NCBI GenBank assembly: GCA_017466695.1
Contig: JAFTTR010000016.1
Location: 4,015 to 68,014 of the forward strand
Reading direction: 5' to 3'
Length of the DNA stretch: 64,000 nt
Source: Alphaproteobacteria bacterium
GTDB taxonomy: Bacteria; Pseudomonadota; Alphaproteobacteria; CAAHEQ01; UBA3637
Shown here: positions 26,975 to 62,481 of the stretch, piece by piece
How positions within the stretch are numbered: position 1 is the first letter of the stretch
Layout of the letters: every line of letters starts with the position of its first letter
Translations under genes and position numbers: made by a program
Notes under the pieces: model-generated
Database searches by the model: none
What the model was told of the DNA's origin: nothing
Seen by the model: the letters and a program-made list of their open reading frames with translations, nothing else

Positions 26975-27059
26975 TGGTGCGGTTAAGAAGACTCGAACTT
27001 CCACGGATCTCTCCACAGCGACCTCAACGCTGCGCGTCTACCAATTCCGCCATAACCGC
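26975..27059 (-). tRNA. tRNA-Leu (anticodon GAG), type II with long variable arm
   Basis: Minus-strand read GCGGTTATGGCGGAATTGGTAGACGCGCAGCGTTGAGGTCGCTGTGGAGAGATCCGTGGAAGTTCGAGTCTTCTTAACCGCACCA: 7-bp acceptor stem, D-loop GGAATTGGTAGAC, anticodon loop TTGAGGT, long extra arm, TPsiC GTTCGAGTC, encoded CCA. Confidence 0.85.
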
Positions 27060-48894: not shown

Positions 48895-48965
48895 TAAAAA
48901 ATTATTGACAGAAAAATAATTTTCTGTTATACTCACTCCATTATTAATTAAATTATGGAGCTCTA

Positions 48966-49757
48966 ATGGATTTACACCAAGATAAAAGAAATATAACAAT
49001 TCGTGAACTTTGCACAGACATATCAAACTTTTTTGAGGTAACACCTATTCACATTTTCACAAACTCTTTGCTCGAAAAAAGGCTCGACACGCACAAAAAA
49101 ACAGCTGGAAGGAATATTGTTCTACTTGTATCCAATGGTGTTGAAGAAGCGCAAACAAATATAACCCCTTCACGTGTGAATAACTCTATACGCATTTTAA
49201 ACCACTACAACTTAAATGATTCCCACGTTGTTAAATTAGGGCATGATAGAAGTCAATTGATATACAATGACGTTGTCAATTTCATCAACAGAAAAACAAA
49301 TCAAGAATTGCCTCCTCATTCTCAAGCAACATTGCTTTCACATACAAATTACCCTTCTGATCAAGCTATATTAGAACAGATTCAAAATGTTATTCGAAAC
49401 AAAAAAGAACCTCAATTTGTTACAGCTTTTCTGAGTTCAACTTTTTTAACACAAACAGGAACTTTAAATCAAAATGCATTACCTATTTCTAATTTAATTG
49501 AAAATTTAAATGGCTCAGGAACACTTTATCTTTTAACATCAACTCATGAATTAGCTCAAAAAACAAAAGAAGCAAGTTCAAATACATTTAAAACACACAT
49601 TCAACCAATTGTTCCCCTTCTTGTTGCAGCTGAATTATTAAGACATTCAAAAAATCATAAAATATCTGTTCAAGAACCAATTGATTGGAGAAGAAATCAT
49701 AAAGATAAAATTGATTTTTCTTGTTTAGCTAGAATATATCACGGCCACAACAGATAA
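48966..49757 (+). CDS. hypothetical protein (no signal peptide, no motif)
   Basis: 263 aa; Asn/Thr/Gln-rich; followed by a strong terminator. Confidence 0.45.
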   Translation: MDLHQDKRNITIRELCTDISNFFEVTPIHIFTNSLLEKRLDTHKKTAGRNIVLLVSNGVEEAQTNITPSRVNNSIRILNHYNLNDSHVVKLGHDRSQLIYNDVVNFINRKTNQELPPHSQATLLSHTNYPSDQAILEQIQNVIRNKKEPQFVTAFLSSTFLTQTGTLNQNALPISNLIENLNGSGTLYLLTSTHELAQKTKEASSNTFKTHIQPIVPLLVAAELLRHSKNHKISVQEPIDWRRNHKDKIDFSCLARIYHGHNR

Positions 49758-49785
49758 CTTTTTAAGAGATTTTATATTTTTCACT

Positions 49786-49824
49786 CAAAAACAAGAGCGC
49801 TTTTTTAAGCGCTCTTGTTTTTAT
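49786..49824. terminator. bidirectional rho-independent terminator
   Basis: 12-bp perfect stem acaagagcgctt / aagcgctcttgt, loop tttt, A5 and T5 flanks; between convergent genes. Confidence 0.85.
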
Positions 49825-49827
49825 TCT

Positions 49828-50799
49828 CTACTTTAAATTCTTTAATGTTTGAAACATAATATCAAAAAAACTTTTTTCATTCACCTTTCGAATAACATTT
49901 ACCAAGAACCCTTCATCATCAATAAGAGTTTTACCCCTTGTATTTGTTAAATCAATTTTAAGTGGTATCTTTTCTTGAACAAAAATCGATGGCTCAATTA
50001 AATATGCCATCGCAACGGCATCATGTATAGCTCGGACAGGGTCATTCTTGTTTTTTCGTAATGCCCCATAATCTAAAACATCCTCTGGTCCCACAGTTGC
50101 AAGCATATCAGCAACAGATATGCCCATCCAACCAATAGAACGTAACTTTTTATCAATTTCACCATTATATAAAATTTTTCGTGTTACGTCCAACCCTATT
50201 AAATTAATCTGTTTTATCTTAGAACTCAAAACTTGATGAACAGCTTCTGGATCAGTGGCAAAATTATATTCTGCATAAGTTTTACCTCCATCATATGAAA
50301 TATTGCCAAATCTGTTGTGAATATGTTCTTTAAAAACACACCCACCCATAATTGTTAAACTAGGTATATTTGTTGCTATTAATGAATTTCTTTTTAAAGC
50401 ATGCGCTATATTTGTTTGAGGAGCCAATGCACACAAATGAATATTTGATTGACTACTATACAAATCACTCAAAAAGTCAGAAGCACTTACAGAGGATATA
50501 TTTCCTTTTAAACAGGGCCAATAAGATGTCCCATCCATCCCAGAATATCCAAAAACATCTTCAAGCGTCACATGTTTTTGTTTTAATGGTTTAGTTGCAC
50601 CTTTATAAATTGGAATATCTTCTCTTTTTGCTAATGAGAGTATTTTGCAAGCGTTTTGTAATGTTTTATCAACACCAACATTTCCTGCAACAACCGAGAG
50701 TGCCTTTACCTTAATATTTTCAGCACCCAACGCCATCAAAATAGCAAGCGCATCGTCTTGTCCTGGATCGCAATCAATTACAATTTCTTTTATGCTCAT
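49828..50799 (-). CDS. inosine-uridine preferring nucleoside hydrolase
   Basis: N-terminal aspartate cluster DCDPGQDDALAIL (IUNH signature DxDxxxDD). Confidence 0.9.
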   Translation of the reverse strand: MSIKEIVIDCDPGQDDALAILMALGAENIKVKALSVVAGNVGVDKTLQNACKILSLAKREDIPIYKGATKPLKQKHVTLEDVFGYSGMDGTSYWPCLKGNISSVSASDFLSDLYSSQSNIHLCALAPQTNIAHALKRNSLIATNIPSLTIMGGCVFKEHIHNRFGNISYDGGKTYAEYNFATDPEAVHQVLSSKIKQINLIGLDVTRKILYNGEIDKKLRSIGWMGISVADMLATVGPEDVLDYGALRKNKNDPVRAIHDAVAMAYLIEPSIFVQEKIPLKIDLTNTRGKTLIDDEGFLVNVIRKVNEKSFFDIMFQTLKNLK

Positions 50800-50803
50800 T
50801 TAT

Positions 50804-51748
50804 TTACCGCAAAATAAAATCAACTCGTTCTTTGAATGATAAATTTTTAGGGTAAGAATCTATTTCTTTTAAAATATGGACTAACCCTTTTTGATTCGCT
50901 ATTTGAATTGCTAACCCTGGACGAGCGTTTAACTCTAACATCATAGGACCCAGCTCTTTATCCATCACAATATCAGCTCCCAAATATCCAAGACCTGTCA
51001 TATCATATCCTTTTGAAGCAATTTCCAAATGTGTACGCCAATCAGGAACTTTTAATGTTAACAGGTCAGCCCCTGTATCTGGATGATATGAAATAGGCAT
51101 ATTATGTTGAACAGCTGCCAAAGCTTTCCCTGTTTTAATATCGATACCGACACCAACAGCTCCTTGGTGCAAATTGGCTCGCCCTCCTGATTCTTTTGTT
51201 GCAAGTCGCATCATAGCAATAGCTGGATATCCCTTATAAACAATAATACGCACATCTGGAATCCCTTGAAAGCTATAATCTTTAAATTGATCTGAAAAAG
51301 AAACAACCTCCTCAATAATTGCTTCATCATATTGACCACCCAAACTATATAATCCACTTAATACATTTGAGATGTGTTGGTAAACTTCTGTGAATTTTAT
51401 AACTTTATTTGAAGCCGTTCTAAAATGATTTTGTGTGTAATGTTTAATAACTAAAACCCCTTTACCCCCGCTTCCATGAGCTGGTTTTATGACAAATCCT
51501 TTCCATCCTTTTACCATTTGAAGAAAATTTTTCACTTCATACTGCGCTTTTATAACACCTATTAATCTTGGCGTTTGAATCCCAACCGTTGTTGCCAACT
51601 CTTTTGTTTTTACCTTATCATCAACCAATGGATATAATCGTCTTGAATTATGTAATCCAATAATTGAAAAATTACGATAATTCATATTTAAGACACCTGC
51701 TTTTTTCAAAGCCCAAGGAGATGCAAACATTCTAAAAAATTTAAACAT
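50804..51748 (-). CDS. ATP-grasp enzyme, alpha-L-glutamate ligase-like (RimK-related)
   Basis: 314 aa; ATP-grasp core GFVIKPAHGSGGKGVLVI ... DIVMDKELGPMMLELNARPGL. Confidence 0.75.
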   Translation of the reverse strand: MFKFFRMFASPWALKKAGVLNMNYRNFSIIGLHNSRRLYPLVDDKVKTKELATTVGIQTPRLIGVIKAQYEVKNFLQMVKGWKGFVIKPAHGSGGKGVLVIKHYTQNHFRTASNKVIKFTEVYQHISNVLSGLYSLGGQYDEAIIEEVVSFSDQFKDYSFQGIPDVRIIVYKGYPAIAMMRLATKESGGRANLHQGAVGVGIDIKTGKALAAVQHNMPISYHPDTGADLLTLKVPDWRTHLEIASKGYDMTGLGYLGADIVMDKELGPMMLELNARPGLAIQIANQKGLVHILKEIDSYPKNLSFKERVDFILR

Positions 51749-53318
51749 TTCCCCCTCTTTTATTTGTTTTTTTCAGTTTTTTTTTACTTTTTACCAAAGG
51801 AGCAAAACGTTTCAATTCCGTAAGTCTATATCCTGTATATATTCCAAGCAACATAATTAAAAAGAGAATAACAACATTTAACTCATTAAAAGCAAATGTA
51901 ATATGTCTAATTGACTCATTTACAATCACAAAATAAATTACAATTGCAGCAAACAAACTGTATAACATTTCTTTAAATGCATTTTTAAAACCTTCTTCCT
52001 CCCAAATAATAGACCCTCTTTCAATAACCCAAGCTATAATAATAATTGGGAAAAAGAGTGCTGAAGAAGCGACTTGCCAATCAAATTGATAACCCAAAAT
52101 AGCAAATATTTGAATAAGTAATATCACAAAAACAACAACAGCAGAAATACGTGGAACAAGCAATAAATTCAAGCGTGATAAACACATTCGAATAAATAAA
52201 CCAACACCAACAACAATACTAAAACAAATCAATCCTTTTAAAAATCCAGTTTCAACCAAAGCCATAGAAATCAACATTGGTGTAAACGTCCCCATTGTTT
52301 TAATGCCTATTACATTTCTTAAAATAACAACGACTAAAATCGCCAAAGGAAAAACCATCAACCATTTGAGTGCATTTTGCTGTTCGAGGGGCAAATTATA
52401 AACAGAATAAGAAAAAAAGTTTTCAATATCTGCATTTTTCGATCTATGTTTTGCCATACTAAATGAAGAATTAAGCGATTTTAAAACAGAATATTTTATT
52501 GAAGAATCCCCTCCTCCGATAACATCTACCAAAGAAGCATTGCCTTTTTGAAATACAATAAAATCTGCAGGCAAACCTGTTTTCCCTGTTTCGATATTAT
52601 AAACATACCATTTTTTTTCATTTAAGTTATAAGCCTCTATCATCACATCAGCTGTAACCGATTTTTTCCCTTCAACTAAATGAACACCTCTAATGACTCT
52701 GGCTGGTATATTTTCAAGCGCCAACAGATCGACAATTTTTTCTGCTTTTTCTTTTAATTTAGTTCTTTTAGGTAAAAAAGACTGAACAAGTTCTGTTGCC
52801 TCCTCATTATTTAAAAGTGCAATAATTTTTTGCGCATTATCCCCTTCTTCTTTTTTTGCAACTTGAAGCAATTCTTTAGCAATCATCATTGTTTCATCAT
52901 CAAACAATGGCTCAACAATTTTTGGTGGATTATTTTCTTTTTTTGCTTTTTTTGCATCAACTGTATCATAAAGCAAAATCCGATAATACACATTTTGTGT
53001 CTTTTTTAAATTTTTCCCAACCAACTTGATTGTTCTATCTTTTTTTTGAACAGTATAATTACCCTTTGCAATTGTATTTTCATCCAAAATTTTAAATGTG
53101 CCATCCACAATGGGTCGAGAAAAAACAATTTCCACATTTTCAGAGACAGGTTTAAATTTTAAGTTTGCTTCAATTGTCCAAACAGGTGTCTTTTTATCAA
53201 TCTCCCATGTAAAATTCAAAAAATGTTGTTTGTAATAAATTCCAAAACCAGCATACAAAAGAGAAAAGATTAATCCTACAAATAAACTCCATCTTACAAT
53301 TGCTAGTTTTTTAAACAT
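51741..53318 (-). CDS. 7TM membrane protein with large N-terminal extracytoplasmic domain (inactive-transglutaminase-fused 7TM family-like)
   Basis: 525 aa; N-terminal anchor, about 280-aa soluble domain, then seven predicted TM helices (res 310-505); overlaps the ATP-grasp gene start by 8 nt. Confidence 0.6.
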   Translation of the reverse strand: MFKKLAIVRWSLFVGLIFSLLYAGFGIYYKQHFLNFTWEIDKKTPVWTIEANLKFKPVSENVEIVFSRPIVDGTFKILDENTIAKGNYTVQKKDRTIKLVGKNLKKTQNVYYRILLYDTVDAKKAKKENNPPKIVEPLFDDETMMIAKELLQVAKKEEGDNAQKIIALLNNEEATELVQSFLPKRTKLKEKAEKIVDLLALENIPARVIRGVHLVEGKKSVTADVMIEAYNLNEKKWYVYNIETGKTGLPADFIVFQKGNASLVDVIGGGDSSIKYSVLKSLNSSFSMAKHRSKNADIENFFSYSVYNLPLEQQNALKWLMVFPLAILVVVILRNVIGIKTMGTFTPMLISMALVETGFLKGLICFSIVVGVGLFIRMCLSRLNLLLVPRISAVVVFVILLIQIFAILGYQFDWQVASSALFFPIIIIAWVIERGSIIWEEEGFKNAFKEMLYSLFAAIVIYFVIVNESIRHITFAFNELNVVILFLIMLLGIYTGYRLTELKRFAPLVKSKKKLKKTNKRGGNV

Positions 53319-53330
53319 GGTATCCTCTTA

Positions 53331-53906
53331 TTAATATAACGTTTTTGAAAGAGCCGTATCAACAATAGCTCTACCTTTTAAAACATTTCGCCCAATTAAA
53401 CCTTGATAATCAAACTTAGAGCGATCAGCTAAAGAAAATTGTGTTGTTATTTTTTCATCTCCCATTTTAATGGTCATCAGAACAACTATTCTTTCTTCCG
53501 ATTCTTTTTGTCTTTTTATAGCCGTTTGGCGATAAACTCGTTTTTCAAAATGGTGTGTCTCCCCATTTTTTTTATTCACAACATCAAAAGAAACCCACTT
53601 AACTCCTTCTCTTTCAAAAAGATTAATATTTTGAGCATCAATAGAAGATGTCGCAGCCCCCGTATCAATTCTAGATAAAATCGCCTTTTTCATTGGTAAA
53701 AAATAAACAGGTTCAACCTCACCAATAATTCCTAATTTATGAGTTTGAGACACCTGTTCTTCTAGAGAGACAGCTGGGACTTTTATTGTTTTAATTGTTT
53801 CAATAACTGTTGGTTTTGTTGGCGTTATTTCTTTTTTTTCAACAGCACAAGATGAGCAAATAGCCAATGACAATACTAAAAAAGAACTTAAAAAATGTTT
53901 TTTCAT
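53331..53906 (-). CDS. retropepsin-like aspartic protease (COG4067 / putative ATP-dependent zinc protease family)
   Basis: Start at MKKHFL (AAAAGGGG SD); signal peptide; catalytic-type RIDTGAATSSID motif. Confidence 0.65.
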   Translation of the reverse strand: MKKHFLSSFLVLSLAICSSCAVEKKEITPTKPTVIETIKTIKVPAVSLEEQVSQTHKLGIIGEVEPVYFLPMKKAILSRIDTGAATSSIDAQNINLFEREGVKWVSFDVVNKKNGETHHFEKRVYRQTAIKRQKESEERIVVLMTIKMGDEKITTQFSLADRSKFDYQGLIGRNVLKGRAIVDTALSKTLY

Positions 53907-54026
53907 TTTTACCCCTTTTATGACATTTTTTTTATATTTTAATAAAAACATACAAAAAGTAAAGCAAAAACTTGCTATTTTTTTTTGAATAAAATATATT
54001 CATCATAAACAAAGGAGACGACTATA

Positions 54027-54397: not shown

Positions 54398-54751
54398 TTA
54401 TCTACGTCCTTTATGGCCTTTAGGTCTCTTTGAGGATTTATGTTGTTTATAATGATGATTTTTAATCTTTTTATGATGATTATGTGAAGCAACACCTAAA
54501 ATGATACCCCCAACCAAAGCACCAATACCTAATGCAGTTATAGCAGCATCAGAAGCATCTGATGAAGTTTGAATATACTTTTCTTGAACAACAATTTTTT
54601 CTTGAACTGGTTGATTAACAATGACTGTGGTAGCAGGTTGTGGCTCATTCACGTAAATTGTTTTATAATAACCAGCATGAGCTGGTAATCCTGCCATCAT
54701 TGTGATTGCTATCAATAAAGAAAAAGCTATTGGTTTATTCACTTTTAACAT
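54398..54751 (-). CDS. small secreted/membrane protein with glycine-zipper segment and His/Lys-rich tail
   Basis: 117 aa; signal peptide AHA|GYY; ITALGIGALVGGIILGVA glycine zipper; tail HNHHKKIKNHHYKQHKSSKRPKGHKGRR. Confidence 0.5.
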   Translation of the reverse strand: MLKVNKPIAFSLLIAITMMAGLPAHAGYYKTIYVNEPQPATTVIVNQPVQEKIVVQEKYIQTSSDASDAAITALGIGALVGGIILGVASHNHHKKIKNHHYKQHKSSKRPKGHKGRR

Positions 54752-54876
54752 TTTATTTCTCCTTTATGATTTAAAACTCATTATTCCTAACGAAAAGAAA
54801 AATAAAATTGTTCATTTTTTATAGCTTGATATTTATTTTCTATTTATATAACATAAATAAGAAACGAGAACTTAAA

Positions 54877-56049
54877 ATGAAAAAATCACTTTATTTAAAT
54901 AATATTCAATTAAAAGCTGAGCTTGATCGATGCTTAGGATGCTCGAGTAAACCTTGCAAAATAGCTTGTCCTATCAAATGCGATCCTCATTACTTTATAA
55001 AAAAAGCAAAAGAAAATAATTTTAAGGAAGCTGCCACTTCTATATATCAACAAAATCCATTGGGGAAAATTTGTGGACTTGTGTGCCCTGAACATTTATG
55101 TATGAAAGCTTGCATTCGTGGGAAAATTGACTTTCCTATTAATATTCCAAAAGTTCAAGCAACAATCATTGAAAAAGCAAACATCAAAGACCCAATTAAA
55201 AGCACAAACAAAATCCATAGCCAGGCCCATATTGCAATCATTGGCGCAGGTCCTGCCGGCATTTCAGCAGCAATTACTTTTGCTCAACACGGAATCTCAA
55301 GCACTTTATTTGAAGCCGAACCCAACATTGGTGGTGCAATTAATCTCATTCCCGAAGATAGACTACCTAAACAAGTTATTAAAGAAGAATTTTCTTATTT
55401 TTCAAATGCAGAACTTATCCATATTTTAACACACAAAAAAATAACCAACCCCCAAGCTCTTTTGAAAAAAGGTTTTTCTCATATTATTATCACAACAGGA
55501 GAAGATAAACCTCATTTATTAAATATTATGGGCGAAGAATTTTGTATACCATATCAAGATTATCTTAAATCTCCTAAAACATATTCTCATTTTAATAAGA
55601 TTGCAATTATTGGAGGGGGGAATGTGGCAGCCGACTGTGCACTTACAGCTAAAAAATTAGGAACAAAAGAAATCGATATTTTCATTCGAAGACGTTCTTG
55701 CGATATGCGATTATCTCCTCATCAACAGCTAGAACTTATTCAAGAAGAAATAAGTATCAATCCTCTTTGTTCCCCTGTCGAAATTTTACAAGATAAAAAT
55801 AAATTTTCACTTAGAGTTATTCTAAATAAAGTAACTGAATCAACTTTTAAATCCAACCCGAATGAAACTCATTTATATACAAACTTTGATGCTGTTATTC
55901 GAGCGACTGGCGCAAAATCAAGCATTCAAAAATATGACGAAAATATTTTTTATGCAGGAGACTGCAAAAATGGTTCTTCAAGCGTTGTTGAAGCATTAAG
56001 TGATGGCAAACAAGTTGCTCTTAAAATTATAAAATCTCTTTTAAAATAA
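54877..56049 (+). CDS. FAD/NAD(P)-dependent oxidoreductase, glutamate synthase small-subunit-like (GltD/PreT family) with N-terminal Fe-S cysteine clusters
   Basis: Start at MKKSLY; Cys clusters CLGCSSKPCKIACP and CGLVCPEHLCMKAC; two Rossmann dinucleotide motifs IAIIGAGPAG and IAIIGGGNVA. Confidence 0.75.
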   Translation: MKKSLYLNNIQLKAELDRCLGCSSKPCKIACPIKCDPHYFIKKAKENNFKEAATSIYQQNPLGKICGLVCPEHLCMKACIRGKIDFPINIPKVQATIIEKANIKDPIKSTNKIHSQAHIAIIGAGPAGISAAITFAQHGISSTLFEAEPNIGGAINLIPEDRLPKQVIKEEFSYFSNAELIHILTHKKITNPQALLKKGFSHIIITTGEDKPHLLNIMGEEFCIPYQDYLKSPKTYSHFNKIAIIGGGNVAADCALTAKKLGTKEIDIFIRRRSCDMRLSPHQQLELIQEEISINPLCSPVEILQDKNKFSLRVILNKVTESTFKSNPNETHLYTNFDAVIRATGAKSSIQKYDENIFYAGDCKNGSSSVVEALSDGKQVALKIIKSLLK

Positions 56050-56137: not shown

Positions 56138-56602
56138 ATGAAATTAAATACGGATGTCACAGGGACTAATTTTAATAATCATGCTTTTCATTCTGAGAAA
56201 GATGCAATTTCTCTTGAAAAAAAAGCTCAAGATCTCATTCATTCCTTAACAAAATCATTTTTACAAGAAGCTAATCTTTCACTTTTACATATGCAACAAA
56301 TATTAAATGATACCTCTTTTTTAAAAGAAAGTGAAAAAACAAGGGTTATTCAATCTATTTTTTTTCAAGCAGCTCATGATTTAAAAGGCCAAGGAACAAC
56401 GTATGGATACCCACTTGTTACAAAAATTGCATCCCATATCTGCTCTAAAATAAAAAAACAAAAAATTTATTCCAATGAAGATATTTTTTCATTCAAAAAA
56501 GATGTATCAAATATGATTGAAGTACTTCAAATGCAACCTAATCAAAAAAATTTAAAATTAGAAACCCACATTTTAAAACAGCTGGAGTGTGATAATGAGT
56601 AA
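56138..56602 (+). CDS. Hpt (histidine phosphotransfer) domain protein
   Basis: 154 aa; Hpt signature AAHDLKGQGTTYGYPLV. Confidence 0.65.
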   Translation: MKLNTDVTGTNFNNHAFHSEKDAISLEKKAQDLIHSLTKSFLQEANLSLLHMQQILNDTSFLKESEKTRVIQSIFFQAAHDLKGQGTTYGYPLVTKIASHICSKIKKQKIYSNEDIFSFKKDVSNMIEVLQMQPNQKNLKLETHILKQLECDNE

Positions 56603-57275
56603 TATTTTACCTCACATATTGGTCATTGATGATGATACTCGTTTAAGACGATTATTAAAAAAATACTTAAGCGAAAATAATTTTGAAGTCAGTGAAGCAG
56701 CCAATGCGCAAGAGGCAAAGTCTCTTTTAAACTTGTTCACATTTTCTATTCTTATTATGGACGTCATGATGCCTGGTCAAAATGGCCAAGAATTAACAAA
56801 AGAACTGCGTCAAAATCAGATTAATATTCCCATTTTAATGCTCACAGCAATGGGGGATATTGACAATCGTATTTCAGGTCTTGAGGCTGGCGCAGACGAT
56901 TATTTACCTAAACCATTCGAACCCAAAGAATTACTCCTTAGAATAAATAATATTTTAAAAAGGCAAATCCAGCAAGAAATCCGAACTGAAATTTTATTTG
57001 GCGATTGCAGTTACGATTCAAAAACAGGAAAACTGACAAAAAATAATGCACCTGTTTTATTAACCGGTGCAGAACAAGATTTACTTAAAATCTTAGTTTC
57101 AAAAATTGGAAATCCTATTTCAAGAGAAGAAATTGCCCAATCTCTTGAAACAGATAATATCAGAGCAATTGACGTTCAAATTACAAGATTAAGACGAAAA
57201 ATTGAAACAGATATCAAAAAACCGATTTGTATTCAAACACTGCGTGGGCAAGGTTATATTTTGGTGCCAAGATGA
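56595..57275 (+). CDS. OmpR-family response regulator
   Basis: Receiver domain (DDD ... D57-equivalent IMDVMMPG, T/K residues) and C-terminal winged helix (ITRLRRKIE ... IQTLRGQGY). Confidence 0.9.
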   Translation: MSNILPHILVIDDDTRLRRLLKKYLSENNFEVSEAANAQEAKSLLNLFTFSILIMDVMMPGQNGQELTKELRQNQINIPILMLTAMGDIDNRISGLEAGADDYLPKPFEPKELLLRINNILKRQIQQEIRTEILFGDCSYDSKTGKLTKNNAPVLLTGAEQDLLKILVSKIGNPISREEIAQSLETDNIRAIDVQITRLRRKIETDIKKPICIQTLRGQGYILVPR

Positions 57276-58678
57276 GCAAAAAAACACCCTTTATTATTTT
57301 AAAACGTTTTTTAATTTGGTTAATGCAAGCCTTTGATGGCGTGCGTATCCGTATTTTTCCACAAAGTCTTTTTTATCGTTTTATTTTAATTATACTGCTC
57401 CCTCTTATTTTTTTGCAAACGGTTATGTTTATCTTCTTCTATGACAGGCATTGGCAAACGGTAAGTAGAAGATTGGCTGCTGACGTTGCCGGAGAACTGA
57501 CACTCATCTCAGATTTTATTTCTTCTGGCGCAGATGAAAATAGTATCCATAATTTTCTCGCCAAAGCCTCTCATAATTTATCCATAAAATTATCATTTAA
57601 AAAACAAGAGCTCATTTTAAATCAACGTCTTAATTATGAAGATTCCTCTGTTACACACCTTACAAATGAATTAGCAGATATTCATTATCCTGTTTATATG
57701 ACACCCATTACAAATAAAAGAATCCTTGTTTCCATTCAATTACCCTCCGGTGTTTTAAACGCCATTATTCCACAAAAACGCTTTTTCAGCTCAACAGTTC
57801 TTGTCTTTCTTGGATGGACAATTGTTTCATCTATTTTATTATTTTTAATTGCATTCTTGTTTATGAAAAATCAGGTTCGATCTATTGAAAAATTAGCAAG
57901 AGCTTCTGAATTATTTGGAATTGGACAAGATATACCTTTCAAACCTGCTGGTGCGACAGAAGTTAAACGTGCAGGTCTAGCCTTCCTTCTTATGAGAAAC
58001 AGAATTTTAAAATATTTAAGTGAACGAACAACAATGCTCGCTGGGGTATCTCATGATTTAAGAACACCTCTTACAAGAATGAAACTCCAATTGTCTATGA
58101 TGAATAAAGATGAAACAACCCGTGATCTTGCATCAGACGTAGAAGAAATGGAGAAAATGCTTACCGGCTATCTAACATTTGCACGTGGGGAAGGAAAGGA
58201 ATTGCCTCAACGCTTTCAATTGGATGAGCTTATCAAACAGTTAGTTGAAAAACAACGCAAAACAAATCAAGCCATTTCTCTTCATATTGAAAATGATATT
58301 GAAATATCCGGACGAGTGAATGAACTTACTCGTGCAATAAATAATATTTTAACCAATGCAGCAAGATACGCTTCACAAACAGCTGTTGTTCTTGGCATTC
58401 GAAATGAAACTGCAACAATTACCATTGATGATAACGGCCCAGGTATTCCTCTTGAAAAAAGACAAGAAGTATTTAAAGCATTCTATAGGCTCGAAGCATC
58501 GAGGAATCAGGCTACAGGTGGGATTGGACTTGGGCTAACCATCACCCGAGACATCATCCTTTCTCATGGTGGCGACATTTCTTTATCCAATAGCCCCCTC
58601 GGTGGTTTGCGTGTTGTCATTTCATTGCCACTCTCTGGTTTTGAAACACCTCAAAGTGAAAAAATAATGCAAATTTGA
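57272..58678 (+). CDS. sensor histidine kinase (EnvZ-like: 2 TM, HAMP, HisKA, HATPase)
   Basis: ATG overlaps the RR stop (ATGA). H-box LAGVSHDLRTPL, N-box ILTNAARYA, G1 DDNGPGIP, G2 GGIGLGL. Confidence 0.9.
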   Translation: MSKKTPFIILKRFLIWLMQAFDGVRIRIFPQSLFYRFILIILLPLIFLQTVMFIFFYDRHWQTVSRRLAADVAGELTLISDFISSGADENSIHNFLAKASHNLSIKLSFKKQELILNQRLNYEDSSVTHLTNELADIHYPVYMTPITNKRILVSIQLPSGVLNAIIPQKRFFSSTVLVFLGWTIVSSILLFLIAFLFMKNQVRSIEKLARASELFGIGQDIPFKPAGATEVKRAGLAFLLMRNRILKYLSERTTMLAGVSHDLRTPLTRMKLQLSMMNKDETTRDLASDVEEMEKMLTGYLTFARGEGKELPQRFQLDELIKQLVEKQRKTNQAISLHIENDIEISGRVNELTRAINNILTNAARYASQTAVVLGIRNETATITIDDNGPGIPLEKRQEVFKAFYRLEASRNQATGGIGLGLTITRDIILSHGGDISLSNSPLGGLRVVISLPLSGFETPQSEKIMQI

Positions 58679-60833: not shown

Positions 60834-62481
60834 TTTTATTAAATCACTTATGATCGCAACCGTTCTTGCAACGACGTTGTCTTTGTCTGCTTGTAATAAA
60901 TATGTCGAAAAAACAGATGCCAAAATCGAAACGATTATTGAACAAGCTGATGAGCATCTGCAGCAAGCAACTATTCCTGATTTACCTGAGACAACCGACA
61001 CTGTTCGCACAAAAGATGATATTTGGCTAGGGAACAGTAGTGTTAAAATTTCACAAGGGGATAATCTACCTCCAGAAATGGAAGAAGAAGATGCTCTTAC
61101 GCTTACAATTGCTCAAGAAGCTACATTGCCATTCATTGCAAATGAAATTGCAGAAGCGACAGGTTTGCACGTTCGCTTAGATAGTTTAAAAGCATCAGAT
61201 TCACTTCCCACCGAAACAGTTCCTGTTGACTACACAGGAACTCTTAGTGGTTTATTAGATTACGTATCAAATAGATATGGTGTTTGGTGGCGTTATAAAA
61301 ATAGAACCATCAATTTCTATACAAAAGAAACACGTATTTTCAATATCTATGCGCTTCCTGTTGAAACAAATATTTCAAACTCATTATCTGGCGCAACAAT
61401 GGGGAGCTCAGAGTCTAGTTCATCGAACGCTTCCTCATCTTTAACATCTTCAGCAAATCTTGCTTTGTGGGACAATATCGAACAAAGTTTAAAACAAATT
61501 GTTGGAGAAAATGGGGAACTTTCATTTAGCCGCGTTGCTGGAACTGTTACTATTACAGCAAGTCCTTTTGTTATTAAAGAAGCAGCTGAATGGATTAACG
61601 ACTTCAACCAAAAACTTGCTCGTCAAGTTGCCATTTCTGTGAAAGTCTTACAAGTTAATGTTTCAAATCAAGACAATTATGGTTTTGATCTTGGATTGGT
61701 CTTTAAAAACTCTGACATTCTTGGCACATTCTCAAGTGCTTATTCTTTAGGCACTGCAGATGCAGCAGGTACATTGTCAATGATGTTGTTAAAACCAGAT
61801 TCAAAATGGACAAATTCAAAAGCAATCATTCAAGCATTTTCTGTTTTAGGGAAAACAGCCTTAGTTACATCAGCAAGTGCAACAACGTTAAATAATAAAG
61901 TTGCACCAATTCAAATCACCACTCAAGAAAACTACGTAAAAGAAACAAACGTTTCAACTTCTGGTAGTGGAACCGATAGAAGTGTTGATGTTGATATGGA
62001 AACAGATACATTAAACTATGGCTTTATGATGGAAGTTTTGCCACGTATTTTAAATCATGGAAATTTAATTTTGATGTTCTCATTAAATTTAACTGATTTA
62101 GTTTCCTTGACAAACTTTAGTTCATCTGGAATTGGATCAGATGCAAATAAAGAAAAAGACGATAATTCAACTAATTCAGAAGATGAAGATGAGGATGAAA
62201 ACTCTTCTGGAGAAGATACAGCTACTGTTGTTCAATTACCAAAAATTCAAACTCGTGGATTCATTCAAGAAATTGCAATGCGTTCAGGTTCAACTCTTGT
62301 TTTAAGTGGTTTTGAGCAAGTTGGTAATTCAACAGCAACAAGTGGTATTGGTAAAGCAAAAATGGGCCTTTTAGGAGGTTCAGCAATCAGCCAAAATACA
62401 AGAGACGTCATTGTCATTTTGTTAACACCAGAAGTTTTAGAATCACCCCTTTCACCTGAAGCAAGAATGAGGGATTTTTAA
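60823..62481 (+). CDS. outer-membrane lipoprotein secretin (PilN/TcpC-like, type IVb pilus)
   Basis: Start at MQINFIK (AGGAGAA SD). Lipobox LSLSAC. Acidic Ser/Asp/Glu linker. C-terminal secretin domain TRGFIQEIAMRSGSTLVLSGFEQ ... KMGLLGGSAISQNTRDVIVILLTPEVL. Confidence 0.7.
   Translation: MQINFIKSLMIATVLATTLSLSACNKYVEKTDAKIETIIEQADEHLQQATIPDLPETTDTVRTKDDIWLGNSSVKISQGDNLPPEMEEEDALTLTIAQEATLPFIANEIAEATGLHVRLDSLKASDSLPTETVPVDYTGTLSGLLDYVSNRYGVWWRYKNRTINFYTKETRIFNIYALPVETNISNSLSGATMGSSESSSSNASSSLTSSANLALWDNIEQSLKQIVGENGELSFSRVAGTVTITASPFVIKEAAEWINDFNQKLARQVAISVKVLQVNVSNQDNYGFDLGLVFKNSDILGTFSSAYSLGTADAAGTLSMMLLKPDSKWTNSKAIIQAFSVLGKTALVTSASATTLNNKVAPIQITTQENYVKETNVSTSGSGTDRSVDVDMETDTLNYGFMMEVLPRILNHGNLILMFSLNLTDLVSLTNFSSSGIGSDANKEKDDNSTNSEDEDEDENSSGEDTATVVQLPKIQTRGFIQEIAMRSGSTLVLSGFEQVGNSTATSGIGKAKMGLLGGSAISQNTRDVIVILLTPEVLESPLSPEARMRDF

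Follow-up and report, generated by a model that had tools for sequence, protein, structure and literature searches.

What might a bacterium do with an exported protease, a seven-helix membrane protein and a cytoplasmic ligase that are all encoded in one short operon? The question is raised by three adjacent genes in a window of 64,000 nt (the whole stretch of DNA analyzed here) from contig JAFTTR010000016.1 of an Alphaproteobacteria bacterium. All three lie on the minus strand, and they encode a 191-aa precursor of a retropepsin-like aspartic peptidase (53331..53906), a 525-aa inner membrane protein with one plus seven transmembrane (TM) helices (51741..53318), and a 314-aa cytoplasmic ATP-grasp protein resembling alpha-L-glutamate ligases (50804..51748). 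An earlier note on this sequence had placed three open reading frames (ORFs) at these coordinates, and they are indeed present. We propose that the locus is almost certainly a chromosomal orthologue, in an uncultured alphaproteobacterium of the animal gut, of the cassette named the rlo operon in Pseudomonas (Lormand et al., mBio 2025, PMC12239564), and we call its genes rloA, rloB and rloC. Joined to a cycle in which a glutamate-rich chain would be made, exported and trimmed, this orthology is the best overall explanation that we can offer, with a probability of roughly 0.55.

Pfam and NCBIfam profile searches agree on the families that had been proposed for all three proteins. RloA matches PF05618 (E 1.4e-29); RloB matches PF14400 (E 6.5e-20) and PF14402 (E 6e-83), with the Pfam 7TM_transglut match running over profile positions 2-247 of 248; and RloC matches PF14397 (E 1.2e-86) and scores 421.8 bits with TIGR02291, "alpha-L-glutamate ligase-like protein," well above the cutoff of 314.2. 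Among the relatives, 80 species-level loci were surveyed, three of which break off at a contig edge, and in all 77 loci that can be tested RloA, RloB and RloC follow one another in the same order and orientation, as expected of the conserved cassette that the earlier note had described. Only this triad is conserved among the 80 loci: dgkA, a GltD-like gene, the gene for a 117-aa membrane protein, a response regulator gene and a nucleoside hydrolase gene are each found in 2-17 of them, the closest ones, and on that ground the wider neighbors were rejected as members of the system. For all three rlo genes, the ratio of nonsynonymous to synonymous substitution rates (dN/dS) is 0.05-0.14 against two relatives, figures that are approximate given a dS near 1. 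The locus stands far beyond chance because E-values reach 1e-126, synteny holds in 77 of 77 testable loci and dN/dS is this low.

The nearest RloB homologues (50-99% identity) all come from uncultured Alphaproteobacteria in animal gut or rumen metagenomes, labeled for example "Azospirillum sp. 51_20," "Acetobacter sp. CAG:977" or Candidatus Scatocola. A search of 1.84 billion cluster representatives turned up 1570 relatives of RloB at an E of 1e-3 or below, and those listed are nearly all of about 510 aa and matched over their full length.

What kind of enzyme is RloA? In its AlphaFold2 (AF2) model, the protease domain has a predicted local distance difference test (pLDDT) score above 90, and a Foldseek search with this model finds 2PMA first (E 9e-12, TMt 0.88), 9G58 and 9G59 next, and then retroviral proteases. 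The sequence itself matches PDB entries 9g59, 2pma and 9g58 at E 1e-11 to 2e-10, and structure and sequence thus concur with the earlier call of a DTGA-type retropepsin. The catalytic motif, D81-T-G-A84 (53655..53666, minus strand), was read directly from the sequence as part of RIDTGAATSS, and none of the 80 clade sequences, nor any of the three PDB relatives, departs from its DTGA. The residues that coordinate poly-Glu in RloA-Pa (K46, R92, R114 and R137) correspond to R79, R126, R139 and R162 in the window; R79, R139 and R162 do not vary among the 80 clade sequences, 77 of which have R or K at position 126. This mapping was made via 9G58, and we find it credible because the spacing of 9G58 yields every one of the eight residue types that PMC12239564 names.

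Where would such an enzyme act? The N terminus of RloA reads M-K-K and continues with a hydrophobic helix (residues 3-16) and with small residues that precede Cys20; the signal peptide (53847..53906, minus strand) thereby ends in a lipobox-like C-S-S-C20, whose Cys20 is invariant in a 32-sequence alignment (A3). By a strict PROSITE-type pattern, a lipobox is present in 55 of 81 clade RloA sequences, and the remainder carry near-lipobox variants. Residues 21-58 (53733..53846, minus strand), about 38 in number, have no secondary structure in the AF2 model and a block pLDDT of 48-64, and the distance from the Cys to the DTG has a median of 50 residues across clade RloA. From these features of sequence and model, we conclude that RloA of this clade is probably a lipoprotein held on a flexible tether of about 38 residues and not a freely secreted enzyme. 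Of the secreted protease that the earlier note had described, the export signal is there, whereas free release from the membrane probably is not.

The tether has sequence features of its own. In many clade RloA proteins (loci L018-L043 and related loci), the motif (V/I)RPAIVPGVE(V/I)(K/R) directly follows the lipobox Cys, and the subclade to which the window belongs carries a related motif, KPTVIETIKT(I/V)xVPAxS. We speculate that the conserved tether motif could be a docking strand for RloB or a piece of a dimer platform.

RloB begins with a TM helix (residues 5-28), continues with a soluble stretch of about 290 aa and ends in seven helices; hydropathy, the AF2 model (mean pLDDT 75.9, built from 15 sequences) and the 7TM_transglut match all return this layout, as the earlier note had read it. 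Hydropathy, the positive-inside rule and AF2 further agree in placing the N terminus inside, the soluble domain in the periplasm and a basic tail in the cytoplasm. The periplasmic domain (residues 29-310; 52389..53234, minus strand) retains a transglutaminase-like fold in the structure prediction and lacks the catalytic Cys. In fact, no Cys at all is found in this domain in the window protein, in 75 of 80 relatives or in Pseudomonas RloB, and no invariant His was listed there. With the fold kept and the Cys-His-Asp triad missing, the domain is fold-related to transglutaminases and not an active member of the family; its fold relatives include LapG, the TgpA periplasmic domain and the pseudomurein endo-isopeptidase PeiW. 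For the seven-helix (7TM) module (residues 311-510; 51789..52388, minus strand), the nearest solved fold is, by weak evidence, that of ion-translocating subunits of the RnfA/NqrE type, and a PDB sequence search with RloB gave no match.

Which part of RloB has changed least? Seventy-three positions show no variation among 15 clade sequences and hold the same residue in Pseudomonas, and the polar residues among them gather on the side predicted to be cytoplasmic: R334, N335, T341-x-G-T-F-T-P347, R390, E433, R434, W439-E-E-x-G443 and Y494-x-G-Y-R-x-x-E-L-x-R-F505. The deepest conservation thus falls in the cytoplasmic loops and the C-terminal juxtamembrane segment, on the side where RloC sits, and this pattern of residues points to a functional interface or a gate toward RloC. 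The C-terminal tail itself is basic (KSKKKLKKTNKRGGNV), unconserved and modeled at a pLDDT below 50, and the idea that it serves as a RimK-style Glu-Glu acceptor was rejected for these reasons.

RloC, in which no signal peptide or TM segment is evident, keeps the ATP-grasp motifs VIKPAHGSGGKGV, RANLHQGA and GADIV...LELNARPGL when aligned to RimK (7qys); in this alignment the glycine-rich loop for ATP, the R-x-N-L-H-x-G motif and the metal ligands D...E-x-N are all preserved. Its weak secondary matches, where characterized, are all alpha-carboxylate amino acid ligases (RimK, MptN, LysX, GshB and cyanophycin synthetase), and most of these characterized relatives are glutamate ligases.

The three genes are tightly packed. 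A gap of 12 nt separates rloA from rloB, and rloB and rloC overlap by 8 nt (ATGTTTAA; 51741..51748, minus strand), as read from the sequence. Strong Shine-Dalgarno sequences precede rloB and rloC, with AGAGGGGGA upstream of the overlap. The overlap, which recurs in the relative L001 and in Pseudomonas, suggests translational coupling. For rloA, the ORF listing runs from 53951 to 53331 with an alternative start at 53906. The start at 53906, which the earlier note had preferred, is the better one because a Shine-Dalgarno sequence (AAAGGGG) lies 5 nt upstream of it, the RloA homologues all begin at the aligned M-K/R-K, and the ATG at 53951 is not conserved and falls within the spacer of a conserved promoter-like site. 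That site (TTTACT, a 16-nt spacer, TAAAAT; 53936..53963, minus strand) is a probable rlo promoter, and a probable promoter of the divergent dgkA gene (TTGCTA, a 17-nt spacer, TATATT; 53972..54000, plus strand) lies beside it. Both came from a consensus scan, which by itself does not rise above chance and becomes informative together with a phylogenetic footprint (alignment A2, eight relatives with coding DNA 60-88% identical). In this footprint, both hexamers of the rlo promoter are invariant, as are, within the dgkA-rloA intergenic region (53936-54000), the boxes AAAAAATAGCAAG and TTTTTGCTTTACTTTTT...TAAAAT; five relatives carry 10-12 nt inserted between the two boxes. The two boxes fit back-to-back divergent sigma-70-type promoters for dgkA and rloA.

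What does the operon do where it has been studied? The earlier note held that no experimental function had been assigned, and this statement is out of date: the operon has been studied structurally and genetically in Pseudomonas, namely in P. aeruginosa PA14 and P. fluorescens (PMC12239564), a phenotype is on record for an RloB-type gene of Shewanella (PMC12096838), and NCBIfam has RloA, RloB and RimB models. The RloA enzymes of Pseudomonas are secreted retropepsin-like dimers whose substrate channel carries positive charge (crystal structures 9G58 for RloA-Pfl and 9G59 for RloA2-Pa); in vitro they cleave runs of at least eight consecutive Glu residues, cleavage that Arg insertions abolish, as well as polyglutamylated RpsF (PMC12239564). 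Loss of rlo function in Pseudomonas affects osmotic tolerance, beta-lactam sensitivity, biofilm formation and cell shape (PMC12239564). A triple rloA1-3 deletion of P. aeruginosa PA14 does not grow in hypo-osmotic medium, deletion of rloB or rloC rescues the defects of this triple mutant, and single rloB and rloC mutants are ampicillin sensitive and form shorter cells (PMC12239564). The same study finds no genome-encoded periplasmic poly-E substrate in P. aeruginosa and describes the activities of RloB and RloC as uncharacterized; it treats the operon in Gammaproteobacteria only and mentions neither Alphaproteobacteria nor lipoproteins (PMC12239564). Within the library that it covered, our literature search found no later paper that resolves the RloBC mechanism.

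If losing rloB or rloC cures the loss of the protease, then RloB and RloC make or enable something harmful that RloA removes. In the window, too, a scan for encoded acidic runs as RloA substrates found none of at least eight residues; the sole match was EDEDEDE, at 62179-62199 in a 558-aa ORF. We posit that RloC, in the cytoplasm, would build a Glu-rich chain, most likely poly-alpha-glutamate, and would probably do so docked on the conserved cytoplasmic face of RloB. The 7TM module of RloB would then move or present this product across the inner membrane, and the Cys-less transglutaminase-like domain would bind it in the periplasm without transforming it. RloA, as a homodimeric retropepsin that in this clade may be lipid anchored and tethered at the membrane, would cut runs of at least eight Glu residues, such that the polyanion is sized or turned over and does not accumulate. 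The net effect would be a tuning of the envelope, that is, of osmotic tolerance, cell shape, wall integrity and vesiculation. For this mechanism taken as a whole, we regard the odds as even.

Several points weigh against our proposal. Pfam, judging from gene context, calls the RloC family "sugar-transfer associated." That single rloB and rloC mutants have phenotypes implies that the product is useful and not merely toxic, which leaves room for a signaling role. The best NCBIfam model for the protease, RloA3, scores 99.6 bits against a cutoff of 210 (the RloA3, RloA2, RloA and RimB models all match RloA, all below cutoff, and the RloA models are tuned to Pseudomonas-level orthologues), and the RloB model NF052267, titled "osmotic stress tolerance membrane protein RloB," matches over its full length (15-507 of 508, E 6e-75) at a score below its "exception" cutoff. 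The C-S-S-C20 of the window RloA fails the strict PROSITE pattern, having Cys at position -3. The protease domain contains no Cys in any of the 81 clade sequences and hence lacks the disulfide that PMC12239564 calls conserved in periplasmic orthologues; where Pseudomonas has the disulfide Cys, clade RloA has K, as does Legionella 2pma, and the disulfide is a stabilizing feature and not a catalytic one.

Could the product be something other than a polymer? RloC might add an amino acid or a short peptide to a lipid-linked, glycan or peptidoglycan-related precursor, which RloB would flip or position while its transglutaminase-like domain binds stem peptides or glycan; RloA would then remove or edit the modification, and the cleavage of poly-Glu in vitro would be a mere proxy for an acidic natural substrate. 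The Pfam name of the RloC family ("Sugar-transfer associated ATP-grasp") is in keeping with this idea, as is the company that the periplasmic domain keeps among its fold relatives (LapG, TgpA and PeiW). So are the P. aeruginosa phenotypes of altered cell shape, sensitivity to antibiotics that target the wall and hypo-osmotic lysis, in connection with which the authors raise peptidoglycan homeostasis (PMC12239564), and the change in vesicle production upon disruption of the Shewanella homologue (PMC12096838). Yet the substrate preference of RloA speaks otherwise, for the requirement for at least eight consecutive Glu residues, the loss of cleavage upon Arg insertion and the invariance here of the Glu-binding Arg residues argue for a long polyanionic peptide rather than a stem peptide. 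Moreover, no glycosyltransferase or wall synthesis gene is linked to the triad in any of the 80 loci, and we consider such an envelope modification unlikely.

Could RloB instead be a receptor? In a signaling module of the sort reportedly predicted for this gene neighborhood in 2009, in a survey that the earlier note had followed and to which we return below, the inactive transglutaminase domain of a 7TM receptor would sense a periplasmic ligand, RloB would control RloC, which would tag cytoplasmic targets, and RloA would make or destroy the ligand. The architecture is indeed receptor-like, an extracytoplasmic domain of ligand-binding type followed by seven helices, and RloC could be regulated through the conserved cytoplasmic surface. 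In addition, the closest relatives carry a two-component system of the OmpR type at a distance of 2.6 kb, and the rlo operon of Vibrio cholerae is under VxrAB control (PMC12239564). The two-component neighbor is kept, however, only in the nearest ~7 genomes, and the best structural matches of the 7TM module, weak evidence as they are, are translocating subunits and not receptors. A signaling role also fits the Pseudomonas epistasis less well than the make-export-trim cycle does; the epistasis is simpler if RloB and RloC produce the RloA substrate. That substrate, poly-Glu, belongs to the product class expected of a RimK-like ligase, which would put the RloC product, or a derivative of it, in the compartment of RloA. 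We judge the receptor reading to be less probable still than the envelope modification.

Is the trio then a ribosome modification pair of the RimK/RimB type, polyglutamylating protein S6 and reversing the modification, with an unrelated membrane gene caught in between? RloC is distantly homologous to RimK, as is RloA to RimB, and the activity of RloA on polyglutamylated RpsF in vitro would suit such a role, but the RimK models (RloC against TIGR00768, 41.8 bits, cutoff 143.4; against NF007764, 23 bits, cutoff 331) and the RimB model (RloA against NF052261, 54.9 bits, cutoff 200) all score far below their cutoffs. RloA, moreover, carries a signal peptide with an invariant lipobox Cys, which implies that it acts outside the cytoplasm; rloB, far from being a chance insertion, is present in every testable locus with its apparent translational coupling to rloC; and in P. 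aeruginosa a rimB deletion does not interact genetically with the rloA mutations (PMC12239564). The failed model cutoffs and the export signal effectively refute this explanation. Last, that the genes form a mobile or antiphage defense cassette, or an annotation or assembly artifact, is suggested by a recombination-like tract of 98-100% identity abutting the 3' end of rloC and is next to inconceivable given that PADLOC defense models match none of RloA, RloB and RloC at E up to 0.01, that GC content is about 33% across the whole window with the rlo genes uniform with their flanks, that the neighbors are housekeeping genes syntenic in relatives, that purifying selection is strong and that the region is collinear over 8 kb, at 98.8% identity, with an independent Joint Genome Institute (JGI) assembly of the same species.

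Within the make-export-trim cycle, can one go further and say what the polymer is for? A bolder possibility, which we offer tentatively and at well under even odds, is that RloB and RloC form a previously unrecognized synthase-exporter for a periplasmic poly-alpha-glutamate polyanion, with RloA setting its chain length. RloC would polymerize Glu on the cytoplasmic face of RloB, the RnfA/NqrE-like 7TM module would thread the chain outward, possibly driven by an ion gradient, and the dead transglutaminase domain would hold it. The polymer might be an osmoregulated periplasmic polyanion, analogous to osmoregulated periplasmic glucans, and membrane-tethered RloA would set chain length so that fragments exit through porins. 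If this were true, the gut lineage would hold a minimal, nonredundant version of the system, with the triad universal and possibly a single copy of RloA. Elsewhere in the window, tblastn for paralogues of RloA, RloB and RloC or for a rimK/rimB pair returned nothing better than E 0.16.

What, then, does this locus add? The rloABC operon and its loss-of-function phenotypes are already known from the 2025 work in Pseudomonas. New here is that the operon is universal and vertically conserved in a clade of gut and rumen Alphaproteobacteria (77 of 77 testable species-level genomes) and that this clade holds a natural RloA variant that is apparently lipid tethered, free of the disulfide and short flapped. 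The comparison of alphaproteobacterial with Pseudomonas proteins also picks out deeply conserved residues on the cytoplasmic face of RloB as targets for mutagenesis, by which one could ask about the product of RloB and RloC and its route to RloA. The question of the RloBC product is no more testable at this locus than in the Pseudomonas model, where it is already being pursued.

The surroundings of the operon differ from genome to genome. Four nucleotides 3' of rloC lies a gene for an inosine-uridine nucleoside hydrolase (49828..50799, minus strand; PF01156, E 1.4e-65), which occupies this position in only 3 of 80 loci. The scan found no terminator-like site between the two genes, and no convincing terminator 3' of rloC or 3' of the hydrolase gene; the hydrolase gene is probably cotranscribed with rloABC here while standing outside the conserved cassette. 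A tract of about 1.9 kb (48900-50800) is 98-100% identical in DNA to locus L003, from a metagenome-assembled genome, with flanks at 78-90% over rloABC on one side and 82-94% on the other, and one of its boundaries coincides exactly with the rloC stop codon and the hydrolase start codon. From these identities, the tract looks like the product of recent recombination or gene transfer between two species-level lineages. An assembly chimera at the hydrolase junction was rejected on the strength of the collinear JGI assembly. Inside the tract, a 263-aa ORF (48966-49757, plus strand) has no Pfam or NCBIfam match.

On the other side, beside dgkA in 11 of 80 loci, a 117-aa ORF (54398-54751, minus strand) has a signal or TM segment at its N terminus, another hydrophobic segment and a tail rich in His, Lys and Arg (HNHHKKIKNHHYKQHKSSKRPKGHKGRR), and it has no family match above threshold. 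Two genes from the operon is a GltD-like ORF (54808-56049, plus strand) of the small-chain glutamate synthase/PreT type, which is a neighbor of the operon in no more than 6 of the 80 loci. In L001, the homologous protein carries Fer4_20 and Pyr_redox_2, and the true start of the window ORF is probably the internal MKKSLYLNN, because the L001 protein has 390 aa and the ORF as listed has 413. A glutamate synthase beta subunit also turned up, together with an RloB-type gene, in the Shewanella vesiculation screen (PMC12096838), an overlap that is probably a coincidence. Farther out (56138-58678, plus strand) come a 154-aa ORF without a known function, a response regulator of the OmpR type and a 483-aa ORF that corresponds, by synteny with L001, to a HisKA/HATPase sensor kinase. 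These genes lie 2.2-2.6 kb from the operon, and only the closest relatives share their arrangement; the two-component pair may possibly regulate rloABC, given that VxrAB controls the Vibrio operon. A tRNA gene (26978-27059, minus strand) is the single Rfam match above gathering score in the window.

How does the locus compare with known systems? The most distant likeness is to the poly-gamma-glutamate systems of Gram-positive bacteria, in which a Pgs/Cap synthetase complex is paired with depolymerases of the PgdS/CapD type. The logic would be shared, with membrane-associated synthesis and export of an anionic Glu polymer and a cutter outside the cytoplasm, and the analogy has been raised in the discussion of PMC12239564. 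In contrast, the proteins are unrelated, and the linkage is gamma where alpha is expected for a putative Rlo polymer. Closer in its parts is a gene neighborhood of an ATP-grasp enzyme, a 7TM-fused inactive transglutaminase and a putative Zn protease, which Iyer, Abhiman, Burroughs and Aravind reportedly predicted computationally in 2009 and from which PF14397, PF14400 and PF14402 are said to derive. Its domain set is identical to that of the window, as the earlier note had suspected, and its "Zn protease" is in fact an aspartic retropepsin; this amidoligase survey is cited as reference 35 in PMC12239564. In Shewanella vesiculosa HM13, disruption of hm2192, which encodes an inactive transglutaminase-7TM protein, causes hypervesiculation and alters vesicle size (PMC12096838). 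The likeness of hm2192 to RloB, one of architecture joined to an envelope phenotype, concerns a gammaproteobacterial gene, the membrane protein being the only member of the cassette found in that screen.

RimK and RimB (the RimABK system) are a cytoplasmic pair in which ribosomal protein S6 is polyglutamylated and then trimmed (PMC11957791). Like RloC and RloA, they join an ATP-grasp enzyme to a retropepsin-like peptidase acting on poly-alpha-Glu, with homologous folds and shared active site motifs (PDB 4IWX, 5ZCT and 7QYS); unlike them, both work in the cytoplasm without a membrane partner, whereas the window protease is exported, rloB stands between the genes and the RimK and RimB cutoffs are failed. 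For RloA taken singly, the best structural match is Lpg0085 of Legionella pneumophila (2PMA, a structural genomics target of unknown function), with which it shares the Lys at the position of the Pseudomonas disulfide Cys.

The closest system as a whole is Pseudomonas rloABC, represented here by locus L082 (CP150919), which was recovered through the 9G58 sequence. The differences lie mainly in the protease and the setting: Pseudomonas RloA has a signal peptidase I signal (AIA|G) and no tether where the window RloA has a lipobox Cys and its ~38-residue tether, and the window enzyme lacks the disulfide pair and the C-terminal tail and has a flap that is nine residues shorter. P. aeruginosa has three RloA paralogues, whereas no second copy lies within the 64-kb window; a nucleoside hydrolase gene follows rloC in the window, unlike in Pseudomonas; and the published operons belong to Gammaproteobacteria, where this one belongs to an alphaproteobacterial gut clade. 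Between these hosts, identity is 34% over the RloA protease domain, 30% over the full length of RloB and 45% over that of RloC, and what the two loci hold in common is the same gene order with the same rloB/rloC coupling, an RloA with an export signal, the DTGA motif and the Glu-coordinating K/R residues, and an RloB that joins a Cys-less transglutaminase-like domain to seven membrane helices.

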